From an uncultured Myxococcales bacterium (lineage in GTDB: Bacteria; Myxococcota_A; Polyangia; Fen-1088): a stretch of 30,660 bases of DNA. Positions within the stretch are counted from its first letter, which is position 1. The number at the start of each line of letters is the position of its first letter. The position numbers and the translations under genes are program-made. The stretch spans positions 1 to 30,660 of the forward strand of contig CAZTTW010000002.1 of NCBI GenBank assembly GCA_964616265.1, given 5' to 3'. This document shows positions 7,186 to 29,085 of the stretch, one piece after another. Under the pieces are notes generated by a model. The model ran no database searches. It was not told the origin of the DNA and saw nothing but the letters and a program-made list of their open reading frames with translations.

Positions 7186-8283
7186 CTAAACCGTTGCGGA
7201 GCGCATCTTCTTTTCCAGGCGCTCGCGCAACCGCAGGATGGGTTTCTCGACAAGATGGTAACTCACGGTAGCGGCCGCGAATGCGAGGCCGATGTTCACC
7301 GGAAACGTGGTGAACCAGCGCGTGTGGTACCGGCACAGGAAGAGTTGCTGCCAAAGGTACAGCGAGTAGGACACCACCCCGACCCAGACCAACGGCCAAC
7401 TGTTTAGAAGTCTCCCGATCGGCGATTCATGAAATCGGATCGACCAGTCGACGCACATGGCAACCCCCACGTTGACAACGGTCCGCCCGGCCAGCAACGA
7501 CAGGCCGACGCTCGGGACGAGGGTGTGGCTGGCCACGACGATCAGCGGGACGAGCACGAACCACGGTGACTCGAGAATCGCCCGGTATCGGTCGTTGTCC
7601 CACAGCCGCTGCCGGAGGATGGCGAGGACACAACCCGTGGCGAGCGCGTCGAAGACGAACGGGAACCCCTGATCGACCAGCGGGCGCTGGGCAGGCCAAA
7701 AGTAGTAGAGCGTCACGCGGAACAACGGCGCCGCGAGCATCGCGCCTACCGAGATCCGAAGGCCGCCCGCGACCCCAAGGTAGGCCACCGCTGCGGGCCA
7801 TAGCAGATAGAATTGCTCCTCTACAGCGAGCGACCAGGTATGGCCCAGCCACCAGGTGTGGTCGGCGCGGAAATTCATTGTGTATGTCGCCGCGGCCAGA
7901 ACGTCCGCGTGACTGAGCTGCACCCGCACCTGCTCGTTCGCGCCCGCCAGAATGCCCATCGCTCCGAGAGCGACAACGACTGCTAGGAAGACGTACATCG
8001 CCGGAAAGATCCGCAGCGTGCGCCGGAAGTAGAACATTTTCAGAGAGATGGTCCCCGCGCGGTCTTTCTCCTTCAATAGAAGGCCGGTGATGAGGTAGCC
8101 AGAGATCACGAAGAACACCGTGACGCCCAATGCTCCCCACGCGAACGGCAGCCATTGCACGGGAAGGCCCGCCGTGCCGAGCAAATGGCCGAGCAGCACC
8201 ATCACGATGGAAATGGCCCGAAGTCCGTCGAGCGACGGGATTCGTTTCGAAGCGCCGTCCTTCAGCAAAGCGCGAGGGCCCAT
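7186..8283 (-). CDS. Acyltransferase family 3 (OafA/NodX-like O-acyltransferase, AT3 domain only)
   Basis: RIPSLDGLRAIS, GVTVFFVISGYLIT, FYFRRTLRIFP, HTWSLAVEEQFYLLWP, SYSLYLWQ; polytopic; no fused SGNH domain. Confidence 0.95.
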   Translation of the reverse strand: MGPRALLKDGASKRIPSLDGLRAISIVMVLLGHLLGTAGLPVQWLPFAWGALGVTVFFVISGYLITGLLLKEKDRAGTISLKMFYFRRTLRIFPAMYVFLAVVVALGAMGILAGANEQVRVQLSHADVLAAATYTMNFRADHTWWLGHTWSLAVEEQFYLLWPAAVAYLGVAGGLRISVGAMLAAPLFRVTLYYFWPAQRPLVDQGFPFVFDALATGCVLAILRQRLWDNDRYRAILESPWFVLVPLIVVASHTLVPSVGLSLLAGRTVVNVGVAMCVDWSIRFHESPIGRLLNSWPLVWVGVVSYSLYLWQQLFLCRYHTRWFTTFPVNIGLAFAAATVSYHLVEKPILRLRERLEKKMRSATV

Positions 8284-8488
8284 CGTGCTCGTGACCAGCG
8301 GTCGCTAGCCGGCAATGGCCGTCCTCCGTTGGGAGGGAAAACACGGGAGGAGTTGGCGGGTGCCACGAGGCGCGAGTCTTAGCACGGGACCCGAACCAAG
8401 ATGATCGAAAGCGCCCCGAATCACGACGAGCGGTCGTGCGCGTGGCGCATTTTTTTGTTCATTTTGATGACGAAAGGCCTGTGGTACC

Positions 8489-8516
8489 TTGCAGTCTTTG
8501 CAAACGCAACTATCCT
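8489..8516 (+). promoter_or_regulatory. Candidate sigma70-type promoter for the dehydrogenase operon, overlapped by a TTGCA-N5-TGCAA palindrome
   Basis: TTGCAG (8489-8494)-N16-TATCCT (8511-8516), 17 nt before ATG 8534; T-rich tract upstream at 8450-8466. Confidence 0.45.
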
Positions 8517-8533
8517 GAGAGGCTGGAAAAGAC

Positions 8534-9859
8534 ATGACTTCCCTTGCGGATAAGATCGCGAATAAGTCGGCTGTTATAGGCGTAATCGGCCAAGGCTACG
8601 TTGGGCTACCTCTTGCGCTCGTCTTCTGGGAGGCTGGATTCAAGGTCGTCGGTTTCGACGTCGACAAGAAGAAGGTTGAGCTCCTAAACAAGGGCGAATC
8701 GTTCATCAAGCATGTCGGTCCGCAGCGCGTTGCATCCGCGGTACGCAGTGGCGCCTTCTCGGCGACTTCCGACTTCGATCGATTGAGCGAGTGCGATGCG
8801 ATTCTGATCTGCGTTCCGACGCCGCTGGGAAAGCATCGCGAACCCGACAACTCGTACATTCACGCAACGGCGCGAGAGATTTCGCGGCGTCTGCGGCCTG
8901 GGCAACTGGTCGTTCTCGAGTCCACTACGTACCCGGGCACCACCGACGAAGAGGTCTTGCCGATCCTTGAAGAGAGCGGCCTCAAGTCGCCAGCGGACTT
9001 CTTCCTCGCCTTCTCGCCCGAGCGGGAAGATCCCGGAAACCAAAACTTCTCGACGCGAACCATTCCCAAGGTCGTGGGTGGCATCAACAACGAATCGACC
9101 GAGGTGGCAGTTGCCCTGTACCGTGCGGGCCTCGATCGCGTTGTGCAGGTTTCCCATTCGCGGGTCGCGGAATCGACCAAGCTGCTCGAAAATATTTTTC
9201 GCTCGGTCAACATCGCGCTGGTCAACGAGCTCAAGATGACATTCTTGACCATGGGCATCGACGTTTGGGAAGTGATCGCAGCGGCGAGCACGAAGCCATT
9301 CGGCTACATGCCGTTCTATCCTGGCCCAGGACTCGGCGGACATTGCATTCCGCTCGACCCCTTCTATTTGTCTTGGAAGGCGGCGGAGCACGGAATCTGG
9401 ACGCGCTTCATAGAGCTTGCCGGCGAGATCAACACCCAGATGCCACGCTTCGTGATCTCGCGGGTCGCGGACGCGTTGAACGAAGACGGCAAGGCACTCA
9501 AAGGTTCTCGAGTGCTGCTGCTTGGTCTCTCTTACAAGGCAAACATCGACGATCCTCGCGAATCGCCTTCGTTCGAGCTGATGGAAAAGCTGACCGAAGC
9601 GGGTGCAATCGTGCAGTACTGCGACCCGTACTTTCCCGAGATGCCTCACATGCGCAAGTACGACTTCGCGCTTCGTTCAGTTCCGTGCACAGCAGAGGCT
9701 TTTGCCAAGTTTGATGCGGTGGTTGTGGCGACTGCCCATGATGAATTCAAAGACCCTGCGCTGTATCGAAACGTGAAGCTGCTGGTGGACACTCGCAACA
9801 TGATCGCACCACTGATGAAGGATCGAGGGCCGACTTATGGACGCCTCGTCAAGGCTTAG
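8534..9859 (+). CDS. wbpA: Nucleotide-sugar dehydrogenase, WbpA-like UDP-N-acetyl-D-glucosamine 6-dehydrogenase
   Basis: Rossmann VIGQGYVGLPLA; ICVPTPL; LESTTYPGTT; SPEREDPGN; KLLENIFRSVNIALVNE; catalytic GPGLGGHCIPLDP; YKANIDDPRESP. Closely colinear with P. aeruginosa WbpA as recalled. Confidence 0.92.
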   Translation: MTSLADKIANKSAVIGVIGQGYVGLPLALVFWEAGFKVVGFDVDKKKVELLNKGESFIKHVGPQRVASAVRSGAFSATSDFDRLSECDAILICVPTPLGKHREPDNSYIHATAREISRRLRPGQLVVLESTTYPGTTDEEVLPILEESGLKSPADFFLAFSPEREDPGNQNFSTRTIPKVVGGINNESTEVAVALYRAGLDRVVQVSHSRVAESTKLLENIFRSVNIALVNELKMTFLTMGIDVWEVIAAASTKPFGYMPFYPGPGLGGHCIPLDPFYLSWKAAEHGIWTRFIELAGEINTQMPRFVISRVADALNEDGKALKGSRVLLLGLSYKANIDDPRESPSFELMEKLTEAGAIVQYCDPYFPEMPHMRKYDFALRSVPCTAEAFAKFDAVVVATAHDEFKDPALYRNVKLLVDTRNMIAPLMKDRGPTYGRLVKA

Positions 9860-11004: not shown

Positions 11005-11136
11005 CGAATGGGCGTTGACCCGGTGGAACTGCAAGTTCTACAGGCCTGACTTCCGGATCTTCTCAGTCAGCGATCGACTGAGCGTCGTCGATGTCGCCGG
11101 AACAACCGTGTGAAAGTAAGATATACTCGCGTCGTC

Positions 11137-12198
11137 ATGCAGGCGCCCCTCGTCTCCGTCGTCATTCCCGGCTTCAATTGCGCGCGATACATACGTCAGG
11201 CTCTCGAGAGTGTCCTGGCACAAACCTACCCAAACATCGAAACGATCCTCGTCGACGATGGATCGACTGACGATACTCCGAGTGTCGTTGCCCCATTCCT
11301 GGATCGAATCACTTACCACCGTCAGCGCAATGGCGGGCTCGCTGCAGCTCGCAACACCGGGATGAGTCTCGCGCGCGGTGAGTACATTGCCTGGTTCGAT
11401 GCAGATGACCTTTGTGCCAAGGATCGCATCCTGGCGCAGGTCGCGTATCTCGCAAGCCATCCCGATGTCGTCGCCGTGGGTTCGAACTTCTCAGCCTTTG
11501 ATGCGGACATTGGGACGTTCGACAAAGCTCATGCCGCTCGGTACTACACTCAGATCAAGAAGAATGGTCTGGATGGCCTCTTTCCGAACGTGATCGATTT
11601 TTACGGCAGCGGCATTGATTGTGCTCCGCAGGCTCTCGGAAAATCGTATCGAGTTCACTCGGGCGACGTGTGGCAACGTCTCGTCCTAGGCAACTTCATC
11701 CATCCACCGACCTTGACGATGCGAAAGGAAGCGCGTGAACGAGCAGGATGGACGAGGCTCGGCAACAGAAGAGGGGGAGACTGGGAATACATCATCGCCT
11801 TGGCGAAGCTCGGACCGCTGGCATTCATTTACGATGCGCTGCTCGAATATCGGTGCCACCCAGAACAGATGTCCTCGTCGACAGGTTCTCCGGACCCGGC
11901 GCTGGACTGTGTTGAGATAGTCGAACGCCTTCTGGCCGATCCCGATGTCCTCTGCAACGAGGCCCTTCAGGCGAGCCTACGCGAAAAGCGCGGAGAACTA
12001 CACCTGGACGCTGCGTACGCTTTGGCGGAACTGAGCCCCGCCCGCGCCCTCCTACACCTTCGCGAATCCTGGAAGAGTCCGGCCGCCAGGAAGCACATTC
12101 CTCGAAATCTTGCCAGGATTCTCATGCCTCGTGCAGGTCTTCGCCTGTTGCGCCGATTGCGCCGCGAGGATCTGTCGACCGCCCATCGACGACAGTAA
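11137..12198 (+). CDS. Glycosyltransferase family 2 (GT-A fold)
   Basis: VSVVIPGFN...ALESVLAQTY..ETILVDDGSTD...NGGLAAARNTG...YIAWFDADD (DxD); alternative GTG start at 11110. Confidence 0.95.
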   Translation: MQAPLVSVVIPGFNCARYIRQALESVLAQTYPNIETILVDDGSTDDTPSVVAPFLDRITYHRQRNGGLAAARNTGMSLARGEYIAWFDADDLCAKDRILAQVAYLASHPDVVAVGSNFSAFDADIGTFDKAHAARYYTQIKKNGLDGLFPNVIDFYGSGIDCAPQALGKSYRVHSGDVWQRLVLGNFIHPPTLTMRKEARERAGWTRLGNRRGGDWEYIIALAKLGPLAFIYDALLEYRCHPEQMSSSTGSPDPALDCVEIVERLLADPDVLCNEALQASLREKRGELHLDAAYALAELSPARALLHLRESWKSPAARKHIPRNLARILMPRAGLRLLRRLRREDLSTAHRRQ

Positions 12199-12305: not shown

Positions 12306-14540
12306 CTATCGATCATACGCGCCTCGATCATGGCCGGTGCCCTGGGGCGCCGGATTTGCCGAAAACCCGTAAGGCCTCGGCCCGAGGGGAGCCGACCCAC
12401 TGTTGATACATTCGGATCCGTTCAACAGACTGAAATCGGTGCCGGCGTTCGCGAATTTCGGATCGCCGTAGGTACCGGTCGCGTCCTCAGATGCCTTCGA
12501 TCTGTGTCTTCCGTTGGCATCGTAGTATTGGTTATTTCGGAACGTATCCTGTCCTACGTCGATGGCCACGAAGTCGCCGGAGTGATTGTAAGGAGAGCCA
12601 AAAGGCAGCATGAAAATGTTGTTGCGAACATCAACCGTCTTCCCGCTGGTGCCACCGTCGTCGTAATAGCCGTACCTGCGGCCATTGCCCAGTCGATCCC
12701 AACCATAGATGACGTTGTTGTACACCCTGATGTTGTTGTTCGCGGTTGTGGCGGCTCCGACGATCCGAATGCCGGCCTCGCCCGAGTAGAGGACGATGTT
12801 GTCGTACCAAACGGCCGAATCGGTCATGTTGCCCTGGTTGAGGCCGTGCTTGTTCGCATTCTCGACCCAGTTGTGGTGGACGGAGATCTTCTGCAGCGTC
12901 TCGTCCGATTGCGAATCGTAGGTCTGGATGCCGTTACCCGCCGTCAGATTTCGAATGGTATTGAAGGCCACCACCACATCCCTGGCAGAGTGGGTCGAGC
13001 CATCGAGGTAGATGCCGTGGTTTTGATTGTCCGCCACAACTCCCCCGATGTCATGGATGTAGTTGGCGGCGATGACCATATGGTACCCATTGCCCGCGAT
13101 ACCAGCGGCATTGGTGATATTGGCGGCGTTGGACTTCCAGGGCCAGGTTAGCTCTGTGTTGATCACTCGACAGTAGTCACAAGAACTGTCGAGATTAATC
13201 GGCGCGGCATCACGAGCACCGTACTGAGATGACGAGATGAAGATGCGCGACCACGCAAACCACTTGGCATAAGGCGCACTACCATCATAGGGATTGGCAG
13301 TCGTCGCGCGGGCATTGTCATTGGCGATGAAACCGCCGCCGCCCGCGTCGTGGCCGGTACTGGCGGTCGGGTAGAACGAGGCCAGCTCAGGCAAGTTCGC
13401 TCCCGCTGCGCCAGGGTACGACGTGATGCAGATCGGACCGCGATTTCTCGCTCCCGTGGGTGCGGTTCCGCCGATACGGAAGAGATTGGCCACGAAGTAA
13501 CCGTCACCGGCGTATTTATAGTCGCCACCTCTCACCACGACATAGGTCCCGGGCGGCGTGCCGTCCTTGGCCGTATCGCCTCTGGCCTTGCGAAGCGCTC
13601 CGGAAAATCCGTCGCTGCTCTGGACGTGCTGGTACGGATGGGAAAACGAGCCATCGTTGGCATCCCCGCCGTTCACGATATCGACAAAGTAGATGCTCCC
13701 TGGCTGGACCATCCACGTCAGCGAATCGGCGGTGCCGTCATACTTGGTCAGCAGACTCACGTAGTTGCCGCTGGCATCGGTGGCATTGGACGGGCGCACT
13801 CCGTTTACGGTCATGTCGATCTTGAGTGCTGTGCCATTGGCTGCCGCCCCGCAAAGAGGACCGACCTGCACGCCAAGCACATGGAGTCCCATCAGGTTGG
13901 CCGCTTTGCTGTTCGTCCCGCCAAGCAGCGGCTGCAGGAAGCGATAGTTGGCCACTTCACAACCGCCGATATACAGGTGGCTCGTCGAGCCCCAATCGGA
14001 AAAGTTGCCAAAGTTCTTTCCGATGACACTCAGGTAAGCGCCCTTGCCACCCTCCCCACCCGATGTCGGGCCGGAAATGAAATCGGTGAACAGCATGAGC
14101 GGCGCATCGTTGTTGGAGCATGTAACAAGAATGTTCGTGATGTTGCTCGTCCCGACTGCGCCGCTACCGTTCATGACAATGCAGGTTTGCGCCGTCGGCT
14201 GAGTACGAACGGTGATCGAGTAGCTCGTATTGACGGGAACCGAAAACGAATACGTGCCATTGGCGGACAGTGCGAGAGGATTAGTGCCGTTGTTCTGCAA
14301 CACCACTCTCTTCCCAACTCCTAGGTTCGAGAGCTTTCCGCCTACCGTGACGGTGCCTGCCAGACCGCCAACTGCTTGGCCACGTGCCCCCTCCACTGTG
14401 GTCAAGCTTCCGCCCCCCTCGGGGCGTTTAGAGCCATCGCAAGTGCTACTTGCCGTCACCAAGACCGTGGCAGCCAAGAGTCCGGCGAATAGTTGAAGGC
14501 CGATCTCAGAGATAACAATACGAGGAAAGGTCATTCTCAT
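12306..14540 (-). CDS. Exported modular protein: Ig-like module + IPT/TIG-like module + right-handed beta-helix (pectin-lyase-like) + DRGAY-type C-terminus
   Basis: N-terminal hydrophobic segment; VVLQNNG...ANGTYSF...QPTAQTCIVMNGSG...NILVTC module; FTDFISGPTSGGEGGKGAYLSVIGKNFG; beta-helix-type repeats (NYIHDIGG, NHGIYLDG, FNTIRN, GNGIQTY, HHNWVEN, YNNVIY, RNNIFM); ends DPKF...DRGAYDR. ORF track start 14594 is probably too long. Confidence 0.75.
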   Translation of the reverse strand: MRMTFPRIVISEIGLQLFAGLLAATVLVTASSTCDGSKRPEGGGSLTTVEGARGQAVGGLAGTVTVGGKLSNLGVGKRVVLQNNGTNPLALSANGTYSFSVPVNTSYSITVRTQPTAQTCIVMNGSGAVGTSNITNILVTCSNNDAPLMLFTDFISGPTSGGEGGKGAYLSVIGKNFGNFSDWGSTSHLYIGGCEVANYRFLQPLLGGTNSKAANLMGLHVLGVQVGPLCGAAANGTALKIDMTVNGVRPSNATDASGNYVSLLTKYDGTADSLTWMVQPGSIYFVDIVNGGDANDGSFSHPYQHVQSSDGFSGALRKARGDTAKDGTPPGTYVVVRGGDYKYAGDGYFVANLFRIGGTAPTGARNRGPICITSYPGAAGANLPELASFYPTASTGHDAGGGGFIANDNARATTANPYDGSAPYAKWFAWSRIFISSSQYGARDAAPINLDSSCDYCRVINTELTWPWKSNAANITNAAGIAGNGYHMVIAANYIHDIGGVVADNQNHGIYLDGSTHSARDVVVAFNTIRNLTAGNGIQTYDSQSDETLQKISVHHNWVENANKHGLNQGNMTDSAVWYDNIVLYSGEAGIRIVGAATTANNNIRVYNNVIYGWDRLGNGRRYGYYDDGGTSGKTVDVRNNIFMLPFGSPYNHSGDFVAIDVGQDTFRNNQYYDANGRHRSKASEDATGTYGDPKFANAGTDFSLLNGSECINSGSAPLGPRPYGFSANPAPQGTGHDRGAYDR

Positions 14541-14951
14541 CGGGGATGGCGGCAAGCAAGTCATGACAGTCCCCTGGCAATCGCAGCCGAGCACAGATTG
14601 AGACCGGTAACGACAAAACGAGTCAGGTTAGTCATCTTTGGGCGCCTTGGACCGGGGTAGAAGGCCGTACGCTTGGGCAGCCTACAGCCTGGCCTTGGAT
14701 GGTCTGAATAGTCAGGCTCGCACGGGCGGCCCATACCTTACTACCTTTGCACAACTAAGCAACCCGCACTGTCGAGGACAGCGGTAGTGAAGGCGCACTC
14801 GCATCCTTGGCTCATCCTCCCGCATTCGTCCGACGCAAGATCATGGCGGCGGCTCCACGGACAAAGTGCTGAAAGCGCGATAGCGCGACCTTATCCGAGT
14901 GGCGCGCTGGAGACTGGCCAAGTGCGACCATCCGCTGTAGATTCGCCGGCC

Positions 14952-16448
14952 TTGACGTCCGGTTCCCCACTCAAGCGTCTCCTTGTCCACGTCTCCCACT
15001 ACTCGTTGGCCAGCCTGCTGACGACGGTTGCCGGAGTCATCTCGTTTCCGTTCATGACTCGGGTCTTCAGCGTCGCTGAGTACGGGACCATCAACCTCAT
15101 TGCGGCGACCTTGACGTTGGCAGTCGCCGTCGGCAAAGTAGGCGTCCAGCACTCGGTGATCCGCTACCACAGTGAAATCGCGAGCGGGAAGCGGATCTTC
15201 AGTCTCGACCAACTCTATTCGACAACGCTCATCGGTATGGGGGCAACCGGGCTCGCCATGGGCGTCCTCCTCCTGGCCGCCACTCTCTTCGGCCCCGATC
15301 GTTGGTTCCATGCCATTCCCAACCTGCGCCTCTACTTTGCCATCAGCTCGGTGGTGTGCATGTCCCAGGTCCTCGAGAGCGTGGTCATCAATTTGGTCCG
15401 CGCCAAGCAGCTCACCACGCTGCTCATGGTGTACCAGGTCGTCAAGCGCTACGCGATGCTCGGCCTCGTCGTGGTCGGCGTACTGTTCGTCGCGCGGAGC
15501 CTCACGTCCTTCTACGCCGCCATGGTCTTCACCGAAGTCACGGCCATGCTGGTGCTCGCGCTCCACTTCTTTCGCAAACACGTCGACGCTCCCCTCAAGG
15601 CTTCCAGCTTCTCGTCGCCGCTCTATACCGAGCTACTTCGGTTTGGCATCCCCATGATGGTCGGTTACGAGCTCTCCGGCATCATCCTCTCGGTAGGCGA
15701 CCGCTACGTGATCGAAGGCATGATGGGCGGAGAGTCGCTCGGCCTCTACTCCGCCGCCTACAACCTCTGCGGATACGTCCAATCGGTGGTCATCTCGTCG
15801 GTCGGACAGGCCATCATGCCGATCTACATGCAGATGTGGGATCAGAAGGGGCGCGACGAGACGGCGGCCTTCATCAGCCGGTCACTTCGCACTTACTGCC
15901 TGTTCGCCGCCCCGGTGGTTGCGGGCATCGCCGCCGTCGGGCCCGAGCTTCTGCCGGCGCTCGCGTCCGCCAAGTACGCCAGCGCGGTGACGGTACTGCC
16001 ATGGGTGATCGGCGGCATGGTCCTCGACGGTATGACCGCCATGGTGGGTGCCGGTCTGTTCATTCATCGGAAAACCACCGTCATCGTGAGCATCATCATG
16101 TCGTGTGCGGTGCTCAACATCGGCCTGAACTTCTTGCTCATCCCGCCACTCGGCGTGGTCGGCGCCGCGATCGCGACGTTGGCTGCCTACGCCGCCATGA
16201 CGGTGGCGATGGCGCTCTTCAGCCACCGCTTGCTGCCGGTCCACTTGCCCTGGGCGTCGCTCGCGCGCTCCGGCGCAGCCTCGGCGATCATGTTTGCCGT
16301 CGTGTACTTCGTCTACCCTGGGCACCGGCTTCTCACCGTGGCAGTGCGGGCCATGCTGGGTGCGCTCGTCTACGCCGTGGTGATCGTCGCCATCGACGGG
16401 GACGCGCGGCAGCTCGCGCGTAAGCTGCGCGCGCGCCTCCGGCGCTGA
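14952..16448 (+). CDS. wzx: Wzx oligosaccharide flippase (MOP superfamily)
   Basis: ~12-14 hydrophobic segments; FPFMTRVFSVAEYGTINL, LLRFGIPM, GDRYVI, LGLYSAAYNL, LNIGLNFLLIPPLGVVGAAIAT. Start uncertain (TTG 14952 chosen; ORF track gives GTG 14787). Confidence 0.93.
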   Translation: MTSGSPLKRLLVHVSHYSLASLLTTVAGVISFPFMTRVFSVAEYGTINLIAATLTLAVAVGKVGVQHSVIRYHSEIASGKRIFSLDQLYSTTLIGMGATGLAMGVLLLAATLFGPDRWFHAIPNLRLYFAISSVVCMSQVLESVVINLVRAKQLTTLLMVYQVVKRYAMLGLVVVGVLFVARSLTSFYAAMVFTEVTAMLVLALHFFRKHVDAPLKASSFSSPLYTELLRFGIPMMVGYELSGIILSVGDRYVIEGMMGGESLGLYSAAYNLCGYVQSVVISSVGQAIMPIYMQMWDQKGRDETAAFISRSLRTYCLFAAPVVAGIAAVGPELLPALASAKYASAVTVLPWVIGGMVLDGMTAMVGAGLFIHRKTTVIVSIIMSCAVLNIGLNFLLIPPLGVVGAAIATLAAYAAMTVAMALFSHRLLPVHLPWASLARSGAASAIMFAVVYFVYPGHRLLTVAVRAMLGALVYAVVIVAIDGDARQLARKLRARLRR

Positions 16449-22900: not shown

Positions 22901-24073
22901 TCAGGGCACGCCTGCTGGTCGACCGGTCATGTCGACAAACGCCGCGAGCACCGCCCCTGCATTGGCGGTCCAAGTGTGGTGCTCCACCACGTAGGCACGA
23001 CCGGCATTTCCTAGGTGCTCGCGAAGAGCAGGATCGCCTACCAAGCGCAGAATCTGTGCTGCCATCTGCGCTCCGTTTCCAGGATCAATCAATAGGCCGG
23101 TATGTCCATCGTCAAGAATTTCGGTGACCGGCCCCACACGCGGGGCAATGACAGCCTTTCCCATGCCCAGGTATTCGAAGATCTTCATCGGCGAGCCGTA
23201 GCTGTTCGAATTCAACAGCACGGTGATGTCCATGGCGGCCACCAGTGCTGGAACTTCGGCGTGCGGCTTGCGCCCGGTGAACACTACACGATCTTCAAAG
23301 TGTTGGGTGCGGCAAAACTGTTCGAGCTGACCGCGAAATTCTCCGTCACCGACAAAAAGAAACGAGACTTGGTCGCTTTGGGTGAAGACCTGTTGCAGGA
23401 CCGCGGGAAATTCCAATATTCCCTGCCAACGATTCATGGTGCCGACGAAACCAACCACAATGCCTGTGAGTCCAAGGCGGGTTCGCAATTGTGAATCGAC
23501 ATGGCGATGCGGACTAAACCAGTCCGGATCGATCGCGTTGTGACAGACCGTGATGCGCTCACCGGGCACGCCGAGTTGCTCGAGCATCTGCTTTTGCACG
23601 TGCGTGACCGTAATCAGATGTTCCGCCGCCCGCAAAATGCGGCCCTCGATCGCATGCGCCAGCCGGCGGAAAAACAGGCCGTAGTACCGCGCCCAAGCCT
23701 GGGCGTAGGGCGTGTTCACTTCGAGGATGAATCGAACACGCCGTTGCCGTGCCAGCATGACTCCCGCAAAGCTGTACAGGGAATAGCGTTCGTAGATCAG
23801 ATCGGGCTGGAATTCCTTGATCGCGCGGCGCAAGCGTAGAAAAGCGATCAAGTTGTAGCCGATCTGCAGGAGTTCGAACACTGCCTGAGGAGCGGCCCGC
23901 TTGATTCGCCCCAGAAGTGTGGGCCGCTGTTCGCCTGTCGGTTTCTGAGTCAGTGGGGCGGGACCAACGATGCGCACTTCATGCCCAAGCGTGCGAAGCG
24001 CCTGAACGATGGCATCGATGTGGATAGACTCGGGTTCCTCGCCCTGGGTGCGGTGGTGGTAAAGGATACGCAT
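22901..24073 (-). CDS. Glycosyltransferase family 4 (GT-B fold)
   Basis: MRILYHHRT...LGHEVRIVGP; PDLIYERYS; VVGFVGTM; FLFVGDG; YGSPMKIFEYLGMGKAVIAP; GLLIDPGN. Confidence 0.94.
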   Translation of the reverse strand: MRILYHHRTQGEEPESIHIDAIVQALRTLGHEVRIVGPAPLTQKPTGEQRPTLLGRIKRAAPQAVFELLQIGYNLIAFLRLRRAIKEFQPDLIYERYSLYSFAGVMLARQRRVRFILEVNTPYAQAWARYYGLFFRRLAHAIEGRILRAAEHLITVTHVQKQMLEQLGVPGERITVCHNAIDPDWFSPHRHVDSQLRTRLGLTGIVVGFVGTMNRWQGILEFPAVLQQVFTQSDQVSFLFVGDGEFRGQLEQFCRTQHFEDRVVFTGRKPHAEVPALVAAMDITVLLNSNSYGSPMKIFEYLGMGKAVIAPRVGPVTEILDDGHTGLLIDPGNGAQMAAQILRLVGDPALREHLGNAGRAYVVEHHTWTANAGAVLAAFVDMTGRPAGVP

Positions 24074-24106
24074 CGCTGGTTTGGTTGCGAAGTTGTCGCC
24101 GGAGGC

Positions 24107-24748
24107 TCAGAGCGAGCGAAAGCTCAGCCCGTCGGCACGCCAACGCGGTAGCAGATGTTTCATCGCGGCCACTGTATGTTCATTGTGATCGTGCAGCAAG
24201 ACGATATCGCGCGGCTGTACGGGCCGTTGAGCGAAACGTCCGAGCAAAGCCTGTAGTCCATCGCACTGATAGTCACTGTAGGTACGGGTCCAGTGCACGA
24301 CGTGATATCCGAGCCCAGTGGCGGCTCGAAGCGAACTCAGATCGAGTCGACCACGCGGCGGCCGGAACAACCACGTGTCGACGCCGCAGGCGTCACGTAT
24401 CGATTGCCGACCGCGCGCCAGCTCCACATCGACTTCCGCGCGAGACATGCCGACGATCTCACGATGCTGGAACGTATGATTGCCAAGGCCGTGACCATCG
24501 GCCGCTATACGTCGAACCACTTCTGGATGCTTGTCGACCTTGTCGCCGACCACGAAGAACGTCGCCTTGACACCGGAGTCGCCCAAAACGTCGAGGAGAG
24601 TCGGCGTGAATTCTGGATGTGGACCATCGTCGAAGGTCAGTGCAGCGTCGACCGTGTCGGACGAGAGCCGCCAGGTGAAGCGTTGACGAAGGATCAGCCC
24701 CTGGAGCAGCTCTTTCGCCGCGTTCCTAAGCAACGGATGCACGTTCAA
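24107..24748 (-). CDS. Polysaccharide deacetylase, CE4/NodB family
   Basis: All five CE4 motifs: LTFDDGP, GNHTFQH, FRPPRG, WTRTYSDY, IVLLHD. TTG 24748 is preceded by SD GGAGG. Confidence 0.95.
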   Translation of the reverse strand: MNVHPLLRNAAKELLQGLILRQRFTWRLSSDTVDAALTFDDGPHPEFTPTLLDVLGDSGVKATFFVVGDKVDKHPEVVRRIAADGHGLGNHTFQHREIVGMSRAEVDVELARGRQSIRDACGVDTWLFRPPRGRLDLSSLRAATGLGYHVVHWTRTYSDYQCDGLQALLGRFAQRPVQPRDIVLLHDHNEHTVAAMKHLLPRWRADGLSFRSL

Positions 24749-24805
24749 CCCCCTCCAGCAGTTGTTCGATAGATTCGAGATTGCGCCGGGCGATTGCCGA
24801 CCCAA

Positions 24806-26269
24806 TCAGAAGCACAGCAGCACCCCGTCCATCTTGCCCACGCCTGCATCGGCAAAACTCATCGTCGATCGCGTCGACGTCGCTCGCAACACAAAATGCG
24901 TGCCCCCCGGCGTCTCGGTGGCGTTCACCAGCTCCAGCCACTCAAGGCGAACCTGCGCGGCCTCGACATGCTCTCTCGTTTCGAGAAGGACCTGACCTGA
25001 GACATCTGCGGTCTCAAAGCTGAGGCGTTCGGAACCTGTCTCCACAGAACGGAGGCAACCTCGGAGCTCCTTGAGCAGCGGATGACGCATCCTCAAGCGC
25101 ATGACGTGGTCGCCCTCGATCTCCTGCAGGCTGATGCCCGCTTCCCGGCAGATCCGTGGCACGTGGCGGGCGTCGAGCGAATAGTAATACGTCGTCGGTC
25201 GCCCGACCGCGTAGTCGAGGAATTGGTCCGGATTGCCCTCCAACCCGGCCTCGGCGGCTTTGGCGATATTGTAGGCCTGTCGTGCCGTTACATAGTGCAG
25301 TTGAAAGCGCACACCGTCGTTGAACTCAGTCCCGAGGGTGCGGTGCATGGCCAGCGCTTTCTCCCCAAACAGCGCATCGAAGTCGCGCTCGATTGCGCCG
25401 TGCGTATGCAGCTTGACGAACAGCCATTCAGGCCGGCCTTGGACATGGACGTTGCAATGGAGCCAGACCGGAATCCGATCGGGCCGGCCCCAATTGCTGC
25501 TCGTGAGGCTTGCGTTCTCCAGCCGCGGATGGCCGGGCGCGCGCCAGTTGAGCGCCAGCGGCCCCTGCATCATGAACAGCGCTGAGGCCGGTGGCGGTGT
25601 ACCGACGCGGACGTCTGGGCCCGAGTCATGGGCCTTCGGTCGCGACTTGTCAGCGCGGCCGTAGTAGAGGCTATTGATCTTGCGCGTCTGCGCCTCGTTG
25701 CCCGACGGCATCGTCAAGTCCCCCCAGAAGCCCACCTCGCGCAGAATGTCCAACTCGTCGTTCACACCGCAATAGCGGCCACCGCACGAGTTGCCGAGAG
25801 CCCAATCGCCGTGGATAAAACCAAAGCGCGTACGGGGAGGTGCTCCGGCCTCTAGCAGCAAGCCCCAGCGGTTGTATTCCTGCAGGGTCGCCCGTAGATC
25901 GCGGCGCAAGGTCTCGGAGGTGTCCCCATCGTGGTGATAGTGCAGCTCTACCTCGCCCAGTCCGTCGAAGGCCATCTGAGCCAGGCTGGCCAGGTGCTCG
26001 TTCCCGTGATGAGGGGGGTAAAACCAGGAGTGCAACGGCGCCATCCCGATTTCACTGCGGCAACGTTCCTGGAGGCGAGCGTAGCCGCTGTGACAGGCTT
26101 GAAGGCGTTCGAACGGCTGCTCGGGCCGCGTGGCCGCGTGGCGCGGCTCGAAGTGATCACATACCAGGAACATGATGTGCGTGGTCCGGCCCTGTCGAAG
26201 AGCTCCGGCACGGACGCGCCCAAGCGCATCCATCAAGTAGGTAGGAAGCCAACGATCGAGTCGCCGCAT
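24806..26269 (-). CDS. Conserved uncharacterised protein, putative NodB/GH57-like barrel carbohydrate-active enzyme
   Basis: Motif-like His/Asp/Glu segments CDHFEP, HSWFYP, EVELHYHH, FGFIHGDWALGNS, WGDLTMPS, FVKLHTHGA, LHYVTARQAYN; directly upstream of the CE4 gene; ATG 26269 preferred. Fold assignment is inference. Confidence 0.55.
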   Translation of the reverse strand: MRRLDRWLPTYLMDALGRVRAGALRQGRTTHIMFLVCDHFEPRHAATRPEQPFERLQACHSGYARLQERCRSEIGMAPLHSWFYPPHHGNEHLASLAQMAFDGLGEVELHYHHDGDTSETLRRDLRATLQEYNRWGLLLEAGAPPRTRFGFIHGDWALGNSCGGRYCGVNDELDILREVGFWGDLTMPSGNEAQTRKINSLYYGRADKSRPKAHDSGPDVRVGTPPPASALFMMQGPLALNWRAPGHPRLENASLTSSNWGRPDRIPVWLHCNVHVQGRPEWLFVKLHTHGAIERDFDALFGEKALAMHRTLGTEFNDGVRFQLHYVTARQAYNIAKAAEAGLEGNPDQFLDYAVGRPTTYYYSLDARHVPRICREAGISLQEIEGDHVMRLRMRHPLLKELRGCLRSVETGSERLSFETADVSGQVLLETREHVEAAQVRLEWLELVNATETPGGTHFVLRATSTRSTMSFADAGVGKMDGVLLCF

Positions 26270-26363
26270 ATGCCTATGATAACCGTTAAGCTTTCGACTA
26301 TGGCAAAAGGTAATCGAGCCGGGCAACTATAGCAGCGCCTACGCGTCCATCGCTTGCGTTGCC

Positions 26364-27620
26364 TCAGGGGCCGCTAGCCCCTGCTGACTTCCGTAGCAAC
26401 TCGACGTTCTTCCTCGCCAAAGACATCCAGGTCATGTCCTCCACCGAGCGCCGGATGCGCGTGCGGTCCCACTTGGCGGACAGCGCGCACCGCAAGGCCG
26501 CGGCCAAGGCGTCGGAATCCCCGGGCTGGGTCAAGATTCCGTTCGCTTGATCGACGATGACCTCCGGAAGGCCGCCTACAGCCGTCGCCACCACAGGTAC
26601 GGCACTCGCCAGAGACTCGATCACCACGTTGGGCATGCCCTCGCTGTGACTCGGAAGGCAGAGCAGGTCCGCTGCACCAATCCAAGTTGCCACCCGTGAT
26701 TGCGGCACACCGCCAACAAATCGAACCTCCGGAGCTATACCAAGCGTCTGCGCCAAATGCTGCAGCTCACTGCGAAGGTGCCCCTCGCCTACAAGCACCA
26801 GCGTCGTCGGGACCGACCCCAGTTCGCCGCAGCTATGAAGCTTGGCCCAAGCTCTTAGTAAAACATCGAGGCCCTTGACGGCGACCAGGTTGCCGACGAA
26901 GAGCACGATGAGTCCTTTCGTCGAGAGGCCCAGCTCCGCACGGCAATCGATCTGGTCTCGCGGGGCAAAAACCGATGGATCAAACCCTGCACACGGAATG
27001 ATGGCTGTTCTTGCCGCAATCTCTGGTACCAGTGCCACAATCTTTTCTCGGAGGGCCCCACTGACGGCAATCACCGCGCTGGCGTGCCGCAGAGCCCATC
27101 TGATCTGCCGTCGCAAAAAGCCGCGCGCGGCATGGATGTTGATATCACTGCCGTGGGCGGTGATGACATACCGCAATCCAAGCGCCCGGGCGGCAAGCGC
27201 CCCCCCGACGCCGTCGGGGAACGCGCAGTGGACATGCACCACAAGACCCGGATCCGCAAGCGCAGCTCGTCGCATCAATCTCACCACGCCAACGCCAAAC
27301 CCTAGGCCATGAACGACGCCCAATCCAGGTGGCGCCAGAAATCGAGGATGCTGCAGCTTGATGCCGTCGACGGTCTCCTCGCGAGGCACTCGCGCTACGT
27401 CTGGCCAACGCCGCGACTTCCAACCTGGCGGAGCCCATGGAACCGGAGCGATGACGTTCAGTCGACACAGTTGGCGCATGGCCGCCACAAGGTTCTTGAC
27501 GAACAGCGTGCGCCGAGGCTGCTGCGAGTTGGGAAAGAACGTGGTCACTACCTGCACGCAGGGGCCGGCAGGGCAAGTGAAATCGGCAAGACCGGTCTCG
27601 TGCAAATTGGCCTGAGGCAT
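26364..27620 (-). CDS. Glycosyltransferase family 4 (TuaC-like)
   Basis: VVTTFFPN, HVHCAFPDG, ITAHGSDIN, VLFVGNLVAVKG, SHSEGMPNVVIESLASAVPVVATAVGGLPEV; start at ATG 27620 or slightly downstream. Confidence 0.94.
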   Translation of the reverse strand: MPQANLHETGLADFTCPAGPCVQVVTTFFPNSQQPRRTLFVKNLVAAMRQLCRLNVIAPVPWAPPGWKSRRWPDVARVPREETVDGIKLQHPRFLAPPGLGVVHGLGFGVGVVRLMRRAALADPGLVVHVHCAFPDGVGGALAARALGLRYVITAHGSDINIHAARGFLRRQIRWALRHASAVIAVSGALREKIVALVPEIAARTAIIPCAGFDPSVFAPRDQIDCRAELGLSTKGLIVLFVGNLVAVKGLDVLLRAWAKLHSCGELGSVPTTLVLVGEGHLRSELQHLAQTLGIAPEVRFVGGVPQSRVATWIGAADLLCLPSHSEGMPNVVIESLASAVPVVATAVGGLPEVIVDQANGILTQPGDSDALAAALRCALSAKWDRTRIRRSVEDMTWMSLARKNVELLRKSAGASGP

Positions 27621-27819
27621 GCTGCTATCCGACTGGCGGAGTACCCGCGCGAAGCGGGTCACTTCGACCCGATGATTGGAACGCGGAGCCGTCGGTCTGC
27701 GAGCCCGTAGCCGGCGTGCAGGCTCCTCGCGCCACAATCGTCTGTCTATTTGAATGCCCGCACGAATCCGTAGTCAATTTCATCGGCATGGTTCCAGCGT
27801 CCCGGCAAGAGCGCGCAGA

Positions 27820-29085
27820 TCAGTCCTGGGGATCTTGCGGTGCGGGTTCGTCACGACGTTCACTGTCTGCCTTCGGCGACTTCACGAGACCCAATTCTTT
27901 GACGGCTCTGATGAGACGGGCCTTGACCTTGGGCAGGTACAGACGCCGCGCCCGGTACACCCAAGCGCCTGGGCTGCGTCGGAGCGCAGTCAAATACACG
28001 GTCTCCCGGTCACGGCATGGGAACTCCTCTTTGTGAGCATGCTCCCCGCGCAAGAAATCGAGGACCCCATGTCCCTCGCCAATCGCGCTCTCCAGCATGT
28101 AGGTCAAGAGGACCTTCCCGGAATTGGAATAGTCAGGGTCAAACCCGACCTGCATGACGTAGATCGCATTGCGAAACCGGTAACAGTACTGCATAGCCGC
28201 GACCTGGCCAGAGAGCTCCAAACAATAGAGCCGAAGTCGATCGCGCGACATGCACGCCTTCATCACCGCGCGATGAAAACCAAGATACTCTGGCGAGGTA
28301 AACCCATGGTTCTTGACGACACGGCTGAATCGCTTGTGATGCAGTTGGGCCAACCGGTCGAATGCCTCATCCATCTTGGATGGGTCATCCCAAATGAAAA
28401 AGCGCGACGCATGCGACGTGCTGAGCTTCTTACGGTTGTATCGCATTAGTCTGCGGCGATGACCGCTCAGCGTCTCTAAGAACCTCTCCCACGTCGGGGG
28501 CAACTCGATATACGTAATTCGCTCCGAGCGCCCCTTGAGCGTTTCGAGTTGCGCGGCATTCGCGACCTCGGCCATCGCGGTGGTGAACGCACACGCCGGA
28601 TTCATGTCAGACAAGTCCAGCACATCCCACTCCCGAAGCTCCAGTGCGGCTTCAGCGAGCGCTCGCGCGACGATGTGCTCGCGCCCCGCTGAGAGTATGG
28701 GGCCGAGGTCATCCGGCGATGTGTCTCCACCGCTACCGACGAAGCGAAGCAATCGCACCGGATAGCGCATCATCGGGAGGGTATGAATATAGAGCGGGAG
28801 AATACCAACGATCGCATCCCCGGCCATCGCGACGAGAAGGCGAAGCGGCTTGCCCTTGCCATAGCTCTGCCACCAAAGGTGTTGCCAATCGAATGTCTCG
28901 AACACACTCGTGATCGCGGCGCACCGTTGCAGTTCCTCCCATTCCTTGGCGAGGGCAGCAAACTCTTCGGCGTCCTGGATAACCCGCACGCGTATGGCTT
29001 CTGCCGGGCTTGCTTGGATCGGGGAAGTCACGCAAGGCCCCTGATTTCGGAGCAGCACGATCGGTTGAGCTCCCATAGGCACCAA
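27820..29085 (-). CDS. GNAT-family acyltransferase, CelD/BcsL (Acetyltransf_6, FemAB-related) type
   Basis: FAALAKEWEEL, FETFDWQHLWW, VGILPL, DDLGPI, WDVLDLSDM, RLRLYCLELSGQVAAMQY, QVGFDPDY, LDFLRGEHAHK. Confidence 0.88.
   Translation of the reverse strand: MVPMGAQPIVLLRNQGPCVTSPIQASPAEAIRVRVIQDAEEFAALAKEWEELQRCAAITSVFETFDWQHLWWQSYGKGKPLRLLVAMAGDAIVGILPLYIHTLPMMRYPVRLLRFVGSGGDTSPDDLGPILSAGREHIVARALAEAALELREWDVLDLSDMNPACAFTTAMAEVANAAQLETLKGRSERITYIELPPTWERFLETLSGHRRRLMRYNRKKLSTSHASRFFIWDDPSKMDEAFDRLAQLHHKRFSRVVKNHGFTSPEYLGFHRAVMKACMSRDRLRLYCLELSGQVAAMQYCYRFRNAIYVMQVGFDPDYSNSGKVLLTYMLESAIGEGHGVLDFLRGEHAHKEEFPCRDRETVYLTALRRSPGAWVYRARRLYLPKVKARLIRAVKELGLVKSPKADSERRDEPAPQDPQD

Follow-up and report, generated by a model that had tools for sequence, protein, structure and literature searches.

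What does a histidine-rich protein without a family name do between a glycosyltransferase and a polysaccharide deacetylase? This question is raised by a 30,660-nucleotide (nt) stretch of DNA from an uncultured Myxococcales bacterium (contig CAZTTW010000002.1 of assembly GCA_964616265.1; the whole stretch is hereafter the window), in which a gene at 24806-26269 on the minus strand encodes a protein of 487 amino acids (aa). An initial annotation, made from the DNA letters, had read the protein as a cytoplasmic metal-dependent deacylase, amidohydrolase or glycoside hydrolase acting on a lipid-linked repeat unit, and as a candidate new carbohydrate-active enzyme family. We found that the gene is real, conserved and without annotation, and that the modelled barrel belongs to the sugar deacetylase/glycosidase superfamily. 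We propose that it belongs to a new family of CE4-like de-N-acylases whose substrate is the lipid-linked repeat unit, and give this proposal an even chance of being right; metal binding, hydrolysis, deacylase chemistry and the lipid-linked substrate are the parts that we infer.

The gene, its fold and its family

The longest open reading frame at this position (24806-26326, minus strand) opens at a TTG codon. Homologues begin where the translation reads MRRLDRWLP, and the start was therefore set at the ATG at 26269, about 94 nt from the stop codon of the upstream glycosyltransferase family 4 (GT4) gene. Translation confirmed the coordinates of five motifs (DHFEP, ELHYHH, FIHGDW, KLHTHG and LHYVT, in the expected order; Table 1) that the initial annotation had likened to the metal-binding strands of NodB-type (beta/alpha)7 barrels. 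The protein contains 25 histidines (5.1%), compared with 0.8-2.9% for most genes of the window, 5.7% for the adjacent CE4 and 4.1% for the GT4 that follows it (GT4_dn). The G+C content of the gene, overall and at third codon positions, is unremarkable against the remainder of the window.

An AlphaFold2 model of the 487-aa protein was built with a 30-sequence alignment and reached a mean predicted local distance difference test score (pLDDT) of 86.6 and a predicted template modelling score (pTM) of 0.90. The model contains the distorted NodB barrel that had been anticipated, over residues 26-358, with seven parallel strands (30-39, 80-84, 105-111, 149-153, 181-184, 282-289 and 322-326) alternating with helices and with the motifs at the strand ends. 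Foldseek against the PDB placed the CE4-like 3rxz from M. smegmatis on top (E 1e-5), followed by PelA and HpPgdA. VIA-align, run as an exhaustive search and then as a second pass over Foldseek's own matches, also ranked 3rxz first (Z 15.7, 231 residues, root-mean-square deviation 3.1 Å), ahead of the insect chitin deacetylase 5z34 (Z 14.8), the PuuE-like 1z7a (14.4) and H. pylori PgdA 3qbu (14.0). Lower scores were obtained for GH57 enzymes (13.9-13.3, 7e1y being 13.9), the NDST1 N-deacetylase (12.8 exhaustive, 13.6 in the second pass), ArnD (12.6), Agd3 (12.5), the PelA deacetylase domain (11.9), GH38 (11.6-11.1 exhaustive, up to 12.5 in the second pass) and the YdjC-type enzyme ChbG (7vi8; 10.1), and the many CE4 entries spanned Z 15.7-9.7 overall. 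These matches were co-linear over residues 28-342 or so, and all of the 50 best VIA-align rows belonged to the glycoside hydrolase/deacetylase superfamily of 7-stranded barrels. All four groups that the initial annotation had named for comparison (CE4, GH57, GH38 and YdjC) were matched, with CE4-like structures on top, and no confident match to a characterised non-carbohydrate enzyme appeared.

Three further elements accompany the barrel. Residues 1-25 carry a W7-x-P9-x-Y11 motif, whose W7 is kept in 67 members of a diverse set of 73 relatives (sharing 27-49% identity with the query and used for all conservation counts below), and the two helices of this segment probably lie at the membrane surface. 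The insertion subdomain, with conserved Q194, N199, G236-P237, R265 (72/73) and W269 (72/73), probably contributes a substrate pocket or lid. The C-terminal extension, which had been put at about 110 aa, is real and measures about 117 aa; it is clade-specific, being missing from many relatives of 350-410 aa, and poorly conserved (mean column identity 26%). Modelled alone, this domain reached a pLDDT of 79.6, and its best matches, the C-terminal beta-sandwiches of GH98 and PL8 (Z 8.9-8.0 over about 113 residues), were borderline. A carbohydrate-binding role for it was considered and set aside, because the GH98/PL8 likeness (Z 8.9) is too near background.

The family to which this protein belongs is large. 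A word-indexed search of 90% clusters, with 8000 candidates scored, returned at least 1805 relatives at E ≤ 1e-3, of which the best 120 were 53-83% identical; wherever the source supplied a name it was "hypothetical protein", and none of these matches carried a precomputed Pfam domain. Exhaustive search of 50% representatives gave at least 1088 clusters at 50% identity and E ≤ 1e-3, and 262 at E ≤ 1e-30. Members from species-representative genomes represent more than 12 phyla; the taxa are Beta- and Gammaproteobacteria, Polyangia, Acidobacteriota, Nitrospirota, Planctomycetota, Calditrichia, Bacteroidota, Elusimicrobia, Omnitrophota, Deferribacteres, KSB1, Desulfuromonadales and Anaerolineae. 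Its distribution is patchy in the phylum of the window, where it was found in 8 of 151 sampled genomes, that of the window included. The seven other same-phylum copies (L061-L065 among them) are 37-40% identical to the window protein, and the proteobacterial copies together with one Polyangia metagenome-assembled genome (MAG; L002-L034) are 50-63% identical. Given these closer proteobacterial copies, the cassette may have moved horizontally.

As the initial annotation had stated, no named family could be assigned. Pfam and NCBIfam scans of the protein gave no match, and carbohydrate-related Pfam models did not match any of the 73 relatives even at E ≤ 10. Searches of PDB sequences with the protein (phmmer) and with two family profiles returned chance matches only (E > 0.09). 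All of the 30 nearest clusters in the ESM Atlas were unnamed; its named neighbours DUF3863, Polysacc_deac_1 and DUF2334, at scores of 0.77-0.79, lay under the trustworthy level and serve as leads at most. A plasmid collection held a single match, labelled hypothetical, and neither a characterised member nor a newly named family turned up in the literature searched. The XrtA/PEP-CTERM polysaccharide deacetylase model TIGR03006 was not matched in the NCBIfam scan; CE4 proteins of about 290 aa that resemble it stand near relatives in L003, L009 and L011, as separate genes. By sequence comparison, then, the libraries searched offer neither a Pfam or NCBIfam model nor a characterised or solved member for this large family.

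The predicted active site

In the model, conserved polar residues lie at or just past the C-terminal ends of strands 1, 3, 4, 5, 6 and 7, the region in which enzymes of this superfamily have their active site. Strand 1 keeps D38 (70/73), H39 (72/73) and E41 (72/73), and P42 closes the DHFEP motif. On and after strand 3 stands E106-V-E108-L-H110-Y-H112-H113, in which E106 is kept in 67 of the 73 relatives (Asp in six more), E108 in 69, H110 in 67, and H112 and H113 in 72 each. Strand 4 ends with H153 (64/73) and the invariant G154 (73/73), D184 lies on strand 5 (72/73), strand 6 contributes K286 (70/73) and the invariant H290 (73/73), and strand 7 H325 (70/73), followed by R330 (71/73) and E331 (69/73). 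The five motifs were thus nearly invariant, save for D155 (Asn in 51/73) and H288 (43/73). We propose that D38/H39/E41, E106/E108/H110/H112/H113, H153, D184, K286/H290 and H325 form a metal site for one ion, or possibly two. Model confidence is lowest in loop 154-172 after strand 4 (window about 25754-25810; pLDDT below 50 at 154-156 and 161-169), with conserved G154, N160, C167 (64/73), G168 and E172 (72/73). These features suggest a mobile active-site lid, in which C167 could act as a ligand or catalytic residue.

Each strand of the protein was set against its counterpart in the canonical CE4 next door and against published motif roles (PMC10967932). By strand order, D38-H39 would occupy the place of MT1 (the Asp-Asp of TFDDGP), H110/H112/H113 that of the two MT2 histidines, H153-G154 that of MT3, D184 that of the MT4 Asp, and H290 that of the MT5 catalytic-acid His. 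The literal CE4 motifs are absent: strand 1 ends in D38-H39 rather than D-D, strand 3 reads H110-x-H112-H113 rather than H-x-x-x-H, and strand 4 reads F-I-H153-G154, without the Arg-Pro of the MT3 R-P-P-Y. R265 of the insertion could stand in for the MT3 Arg, by analogy with Agd3 and NodB2 (PMC10967932). Members of the NodB1.2 subclass (3RXZ, 3QBU, 1Z7A and 3S6O) retain just the key residue of each motif and show Pro or Gly where MT3 lies (PMC10967932). It is these structures that gave the best matches, co-linear over the whole barrel at Z 15.7-14.0, and the window protein would likewise keep one key residue per motif on the strands of MT1-MT5, with a Gly in the Pro/Gly place of MT3. It differs from them in identity (10-14%, with no hidden Markov model (HMM) or profile link), in the His after the first MT1 Asp, in E-x-E-x-H-x-H-H replacing H-x-x-x-H, and in the added 90-aa insertion, conserved H325 and K286, and C-terminal beta-sandwich. 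We therefore place the protein in a new family of a known superfamily; it would work most like CE4/NodB enzymes, yet it is not matched by the CE4 HMM and lacks the literal MT1-MT3 motifs.

The absence of literal CE4 motifs would also fit a non-catalytic NodB-like pseudoenzyme that scaffolds a GT4/CE4 assembly or binds glycan, and CE4 pseudoenzymes do exist, BA3943 being among our structural matches. However, the ionisable strand-end residues hardly vary over more than 12 phyla, in proteins that share 27-49% overall identity with the query, which argues for an active site rather than a scaffold, and we regard the pseudoenzyme as highly improbable.

A GH38/GH57-like glycoside hydrolase or transglycosylase, trimming or remodelling the repeat unit or the polymer and paired with CE4 as in PgaB/PelA, was a more serious candidate. 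GH57 (Z 13.9-13.3) and GH38 (12.5-11) share the 7-stranded barrel, and alignments were longest with GH38, reaching 284 residues, with equal overall length and next to no net gain or loss of residues over positions 1-344; CE4 is moreover the commonest fusion partner of the family. The strand-1 H-x-E-P resembles the H-x-D-P zinc motif of GH38, and an H-x-(D/E)-P metal motif is apparently common to both. Model residues 1-344 aligned with chain residues 52-394 of Drosophila Golgi mannosidase II (dGMII), with an offset of about 51 at both ends. H90 and D92 of dGMII are Zn ligands, D204 is the nucleophile and D341 the acid/base (PMC13204073); the offset places them approximately on H39, E41, H153 and H290. 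If this mapping holds, the GH38 metal ligands would be kept and both catalytic carboxylates would be His, which would favour a deacylase with metal-activated water over a retaining glycosidase. GH57 enzymes have a Glu nucleophile and an Asp acid/base in conserved regions III and IV; by approximate range mapping, the nucleophile position at the end of strand 4 reads H153-G154-N/D155, with no conserved carboxylate, D155 being Asn in most relatives. Neither PF03065 (GH57) nor PF01074 (GH38) matched any of the 73 relatives, so that the protein falls outside both families by HMM, and probably by catalytic residues too. Unlike GH38 and GH57 enzymes, it is predicted to be cytoplasmic and its surroundings are those of biosynthesis, not of degradation, and its fusions with CE4, GT4 and GT2 likewise lack export signals. 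A cytoplasmic glycosidase step is not known from Wzx/Wzy pathways. We consider a glycosidase quite unlikely.

Neighbours, fusions and location of the family

Taken as a whole, the window is an exopolysaccharide locus of the Wzx type that includes export parts resembling those of the XrtA system, and the target gene is flanked by a GT4 (GT4_up) and a CE4 on the same strand, as the initial annotation had reported. To place this arrangement among relatives, we sampled 59 related loci from species-representative genomes. A homologue of a window glycosyltransferase (GT4 or GT2) was directly adjacent on the same strand in 37 of the 59 loci, and within 6 kb a GT4 was found in 43 and a CE4 in 17. Counterparts of GT4_dn (46-67% identical) stood directly upstream of the family member in 24/59 loci, and a GT2 directly downstream in 24/59. 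Eleven other genomes carried the string GT4_up - CE4 - GT4_dn - family member - GT2 (listed loci L007, L014, L016, L023-L025, L029-L031 and L034); the window (22901-27737) has a rearranged order, GT4_up - family member - CE4 - GT4_dn, with the GT2 elsewhere. An Elusimicrobia MAG (L040) has two family copies (7980-9080 and 14442-15551), with a GT2 directly before each. Unbiased neighbour clustering recovered Wzy_C-type polymerases in 26 loci, Wzx flippases in 16 and 7, AsnB-like amidotransferases in 9 (e.g. L044:4849-6726) and methyltransferases in 8; the AsnB-like and Wzy_C neighbours hint at polymers that also carry amidated uronic acids.

Fusions pointed to the same partners. Among the 150 best representatives, CE4 was the commonest fusion partner, with 9 cases (at the N-terminus in P0164, P0170, P0184, P0187, P0199, P0206, P0226 and P0256, and at the C-terminus in P0183). 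Single fusions joined the family domain to a GT4 (P0229), a GT2 (P0175), a hexapeptide acyltransferase (P0166) and a VanZ-like membrane domain (P0213). Long frames in L062 and L063 looked like overlapping spurious reading frames and were not counted as fusions. Three metagenomic proteins (P0145, P0147 and P0154) combine an N-terminal right-handed beta-helix (NosD/pectate-lyase-like), one transmembrane (TM) segment and the family domain, and a single chain of this kind may cross the membrane and place a polysaccharide-active domain on either side of it. At their N-termini, P0147 and P0154 share a CEPLE.RR(L/F) motif of a kind known from planctomycete secreted proteins.

The initial annotation's view that the protein has no signal peptide and is cytoplasmic in a carbohydrate context was borne out. 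The top Kyte-Doolittle 19-mer scores just 0.94, and the protein therefore has neither a signal peptide nor a TM segment; export signals were also absent from the CE4, GT4 and GT2 fusions. A hydrophobic segment N-terminal of DHFEP occurs in 49 of 115 family representatives, and in the examples examined it directly precedes the conserved W-x-P-x-Y helix. Because the fusion partners are cytoplasmic and export signals are absent, the family domain would lie on the cytoplasmic side of the membrane. Action on a lipid-linked repeat unit is plausible in view of the synteny, the fusions and the relatives with a membrane anchor.

The coordinates of the target, its parts and its neighbours are collected in Table 1. 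Of the neighbours, the CE4 has intact motifs (TFDD, HTFQH, RPPRG and LLHD); its listed reading frame opens at a TTG right after the target's stop codon, and homologues begin about 21 residues later. A GTG at 24742 sits behind GGAGGGGG and is probably the true start, giving 211 aa (24107-24742) and a 63-nt gap to the target. GT4_up has sub-threshold NCBIfam matches of the TuaC, BshA and MshA types, and the GT4s of the window together match the BshA, MshA, TuaC and N-acetylglucosamine (GlcNAc)-phosphatidylglycerol (PG) synthase models at this level. BshA, MshA and GlcNAc-PG synthase transfer GlcNAc. The strand of the target also carries genes for a methyltransferase, the FemAB-like GNAT and a second GT4. 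A 762-aa protein without Pfam match (12306-14594, minus strand) has homologues, 25-33% identical, that lie no more than 6 kb from the family member in 15-16 of the 59 loci, and is another unannotated recurrent component.

Table 1 Coordinates of the target gene, its domains and motifs, and neighbouring genes in the window
Feature	Position	Strand	Residues	Remark
Whole target gene	24806-26269	-	487 aa + stop	Open reading frame and translation
N-terminal helices	26195-26269	-	1-25	Helices 4-13 and 15-25 in model
Catalytic (beta/alpha)7 barrel (predicted)	25196-26194	-	26-358	AlphaFold2 model and structure matches
Insertion subdomain	25430-25702	-	190-280	About 90 aa, between strands 5 and 6
C-terminal beta-sandwich	24845-25195	-	about 359-475	All-beta in model
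DHFEP	26144-26158	-	38-42
ELHYHH	25931-25948	-	108-113
E106-V-E108-L-H110-Y-H112-H113	25931-25954	-	106-113	On and after strand 3
FIHGDW	25802-25819	-	151-156
KLHTHG	25397-25414	-	286-291
LHYVT	25286-25300	-	324-328
GT4_up, GT4 glycosyltransferase	26364-27737	-		Directly upstream of target
Canonical CE4/NodB	24107-24742 (listed reading frame 24107-24805)	-		PF01522, E 1.4e-34
GT4_dn, GT4 glycosyltransferase	22901-24073	-		Pfam, NCBIfam, synteny
FemAB-like GNAT (Acetyltransf_6)	27820-29085	-		PF13480, E 3.2e-30; two genes upstream of target
UDP-N-acetylhexosamine dehydrogenase-like gene	8534-9859			In locus
GT2	11110-12198	opposite to target

The same neighbourhood bears on a further alternative, a metal hydrolase of the same fold with another substrate or bond, such as a deacylase at the nucleotide-sugar level, an amidase of a non-acetyl substituent, or a binuclear His-rich phospho- or pyrophosphoesterase. 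About ten conserved His, Asp and Glu residues crowd the barrel mouth, more than the Asp-His-His triad plus base and acid of CE4, and the superfamily includes non-polysaccharide hydrolases, represented among our matches by the PuuE-like 1z7a and 3s6o (Z 14.4-14.5), LamB/YcsF 1v6t (8.9) and ChbG. The locus also contains a UDP-N-acetylhexosamine (UDP-HexNAc) dehydrogenase-like gene. Against this, it is glycosyltransferases and CE4, not nucleotide-sugar enzymes, that are recurrently adjacent to or fused with the family, and many relatives are TM-anchored just before the domain, which suits a membrane-bound substrate. The many histidines had also raised a PHP- or amidohydrolase-type trinuclear phosphoesterase; such folds are absent from the 50 best structural matches, and the idea is retained only as part of this broader alternative. 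Overall, we consider another substrate or bond unlikely.

Proposed reaction and its meaning

The reading we prefer is a de-N-acylase of the lipid-linked repeat unit. The enzyme would be a cytoplasmic metal-dependent hydrolase with a divergent NodB/GH38-type barrel, the insertion of about 90 aa and the C-terminal beta-sandwich, whose metal would activate water as in CE4 enzymes. Straight after a GT4 adds a hexosamine to the undecaprenyl-diphosphate (Und-PP)-linked repeat unit, it would remove the N-acetyl or another acyl group from that sugar, and the neighbouring canonical CE4 would work alongside on a different sugar residue. The freed amine may keep its positive charge, or an acyltransferase may acylate it again; the nearby FemAB-like GNAT, a candidate for this step, and the hexapeptide-acyltransferase fusion in P0166 fit the second course. 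The order of GT4 and then deacylase is suggested by the sub-threshold GlcNAc-transferase matches of the window's GT4s and by the precedent of GpgS/GpgD, in which a glycosyltransferase and then a deacetylase act on membrane-lipid-linked GlcNAc (PMC12713373).

Comparable logic is known from deacetylases and deformylases that work on lipid-linked sugars on the cytoplasmic side of the membrane (ArnD, GpgD with GpgS, HfsH, and MshB/BshB after a GT4), where a glycosyltransferase adds an N-acetylhexosamine and a metal hydrolase strips the acyl group. Unlike the target, those hydrolases are CE4 proper or LmbE proteins, without its motif set or architecture. In PgaB and PelA, the pairing of a deacetylase with another barrel recalls the fusions between CE4 and the present family. 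PgaB, PelA and Agd3, however, are periplasmic or extracellular and act on finished polymers in synthase-dependent systems, whereas the window protein has no export signals and its family occurs in Wzx/Wzy-type loci. Agd3 is reportedly a divergent NodB enzyme that founded a new CE family, CE18, a course that the present family would parallel.

Several observations weigh against a CE4-like deacylase. PF01522 was unmatched in all 73 relatives at E ≤ 10, leaving no sequence-level link to CE4. Alignment of the family with a 13-sequence CE4 alignment by hhalign, run once with the whole family alignment and once with the insertion and termini trimmed off, gave probabilities of 0.2-0.8%, and the sole local alignment was register-shifted and not significant. 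The residue equivalences to CE4 and GH38 are approximate, being drawn from strand order and the end-points of aligned ranges. The GH57 score (Z 13.9) lies within 2 units of the CE4-like matches, and the fold alone therefore cannot decide the chemistry. A canonical CE4, adjacent or fused, would make a second deacetylase partly redundant. No CE4 is nearby in 42 of the sampled loci, and the known partners of the CE4 domain in PgaB and PelA are glycoside hydrolases. Lys/Arg counts leave the topology of the TM-anchored relatives ambiguous, with the excess on the C-side of the segment in 22 and on the N-side in 17. Finally, the family has more conserved His and Glu than the mononuclear site of CE4 requires, so that a second metal or a different reaction is possible.

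With these points in mind, we also put forward, tentatively and at slightly less than an even chance, a broader description: a new carbohydrate-active enzyme family with a cytoplasmic, membrane-proximal NodB/GH38-hybrid barrel and a His-rich, possibly binuclear metal site, which would edit Und-PP-linked repeat units outside the current CE and GH families. Example reactions would be the removal of an N-acyl group beyond the reach of the adjacent CE4, or cleavage of an amide- or phospho-linked substituent.

The family, with at least 1088 clusters in more than 12 bacterial phyla, sits in Wzx/Wzy loci, and none of the Pfam and NCBIfam models searched describes it. An active site that mixes CE4-like and GH38-like features would bear on how the glycoside hydrolase/deacetylase barrel superfamily diversified. 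If the protein does deacylate lipid-linked intermediates, it would bring a further family of the carbohydrate esterase type and give thousands of "hypothetical" genes a better annotation. It would also account for the free or re-acylated amino groups of some exopolysaccharides, groups that affect charge, adhesion, and floc or biofilm properties.

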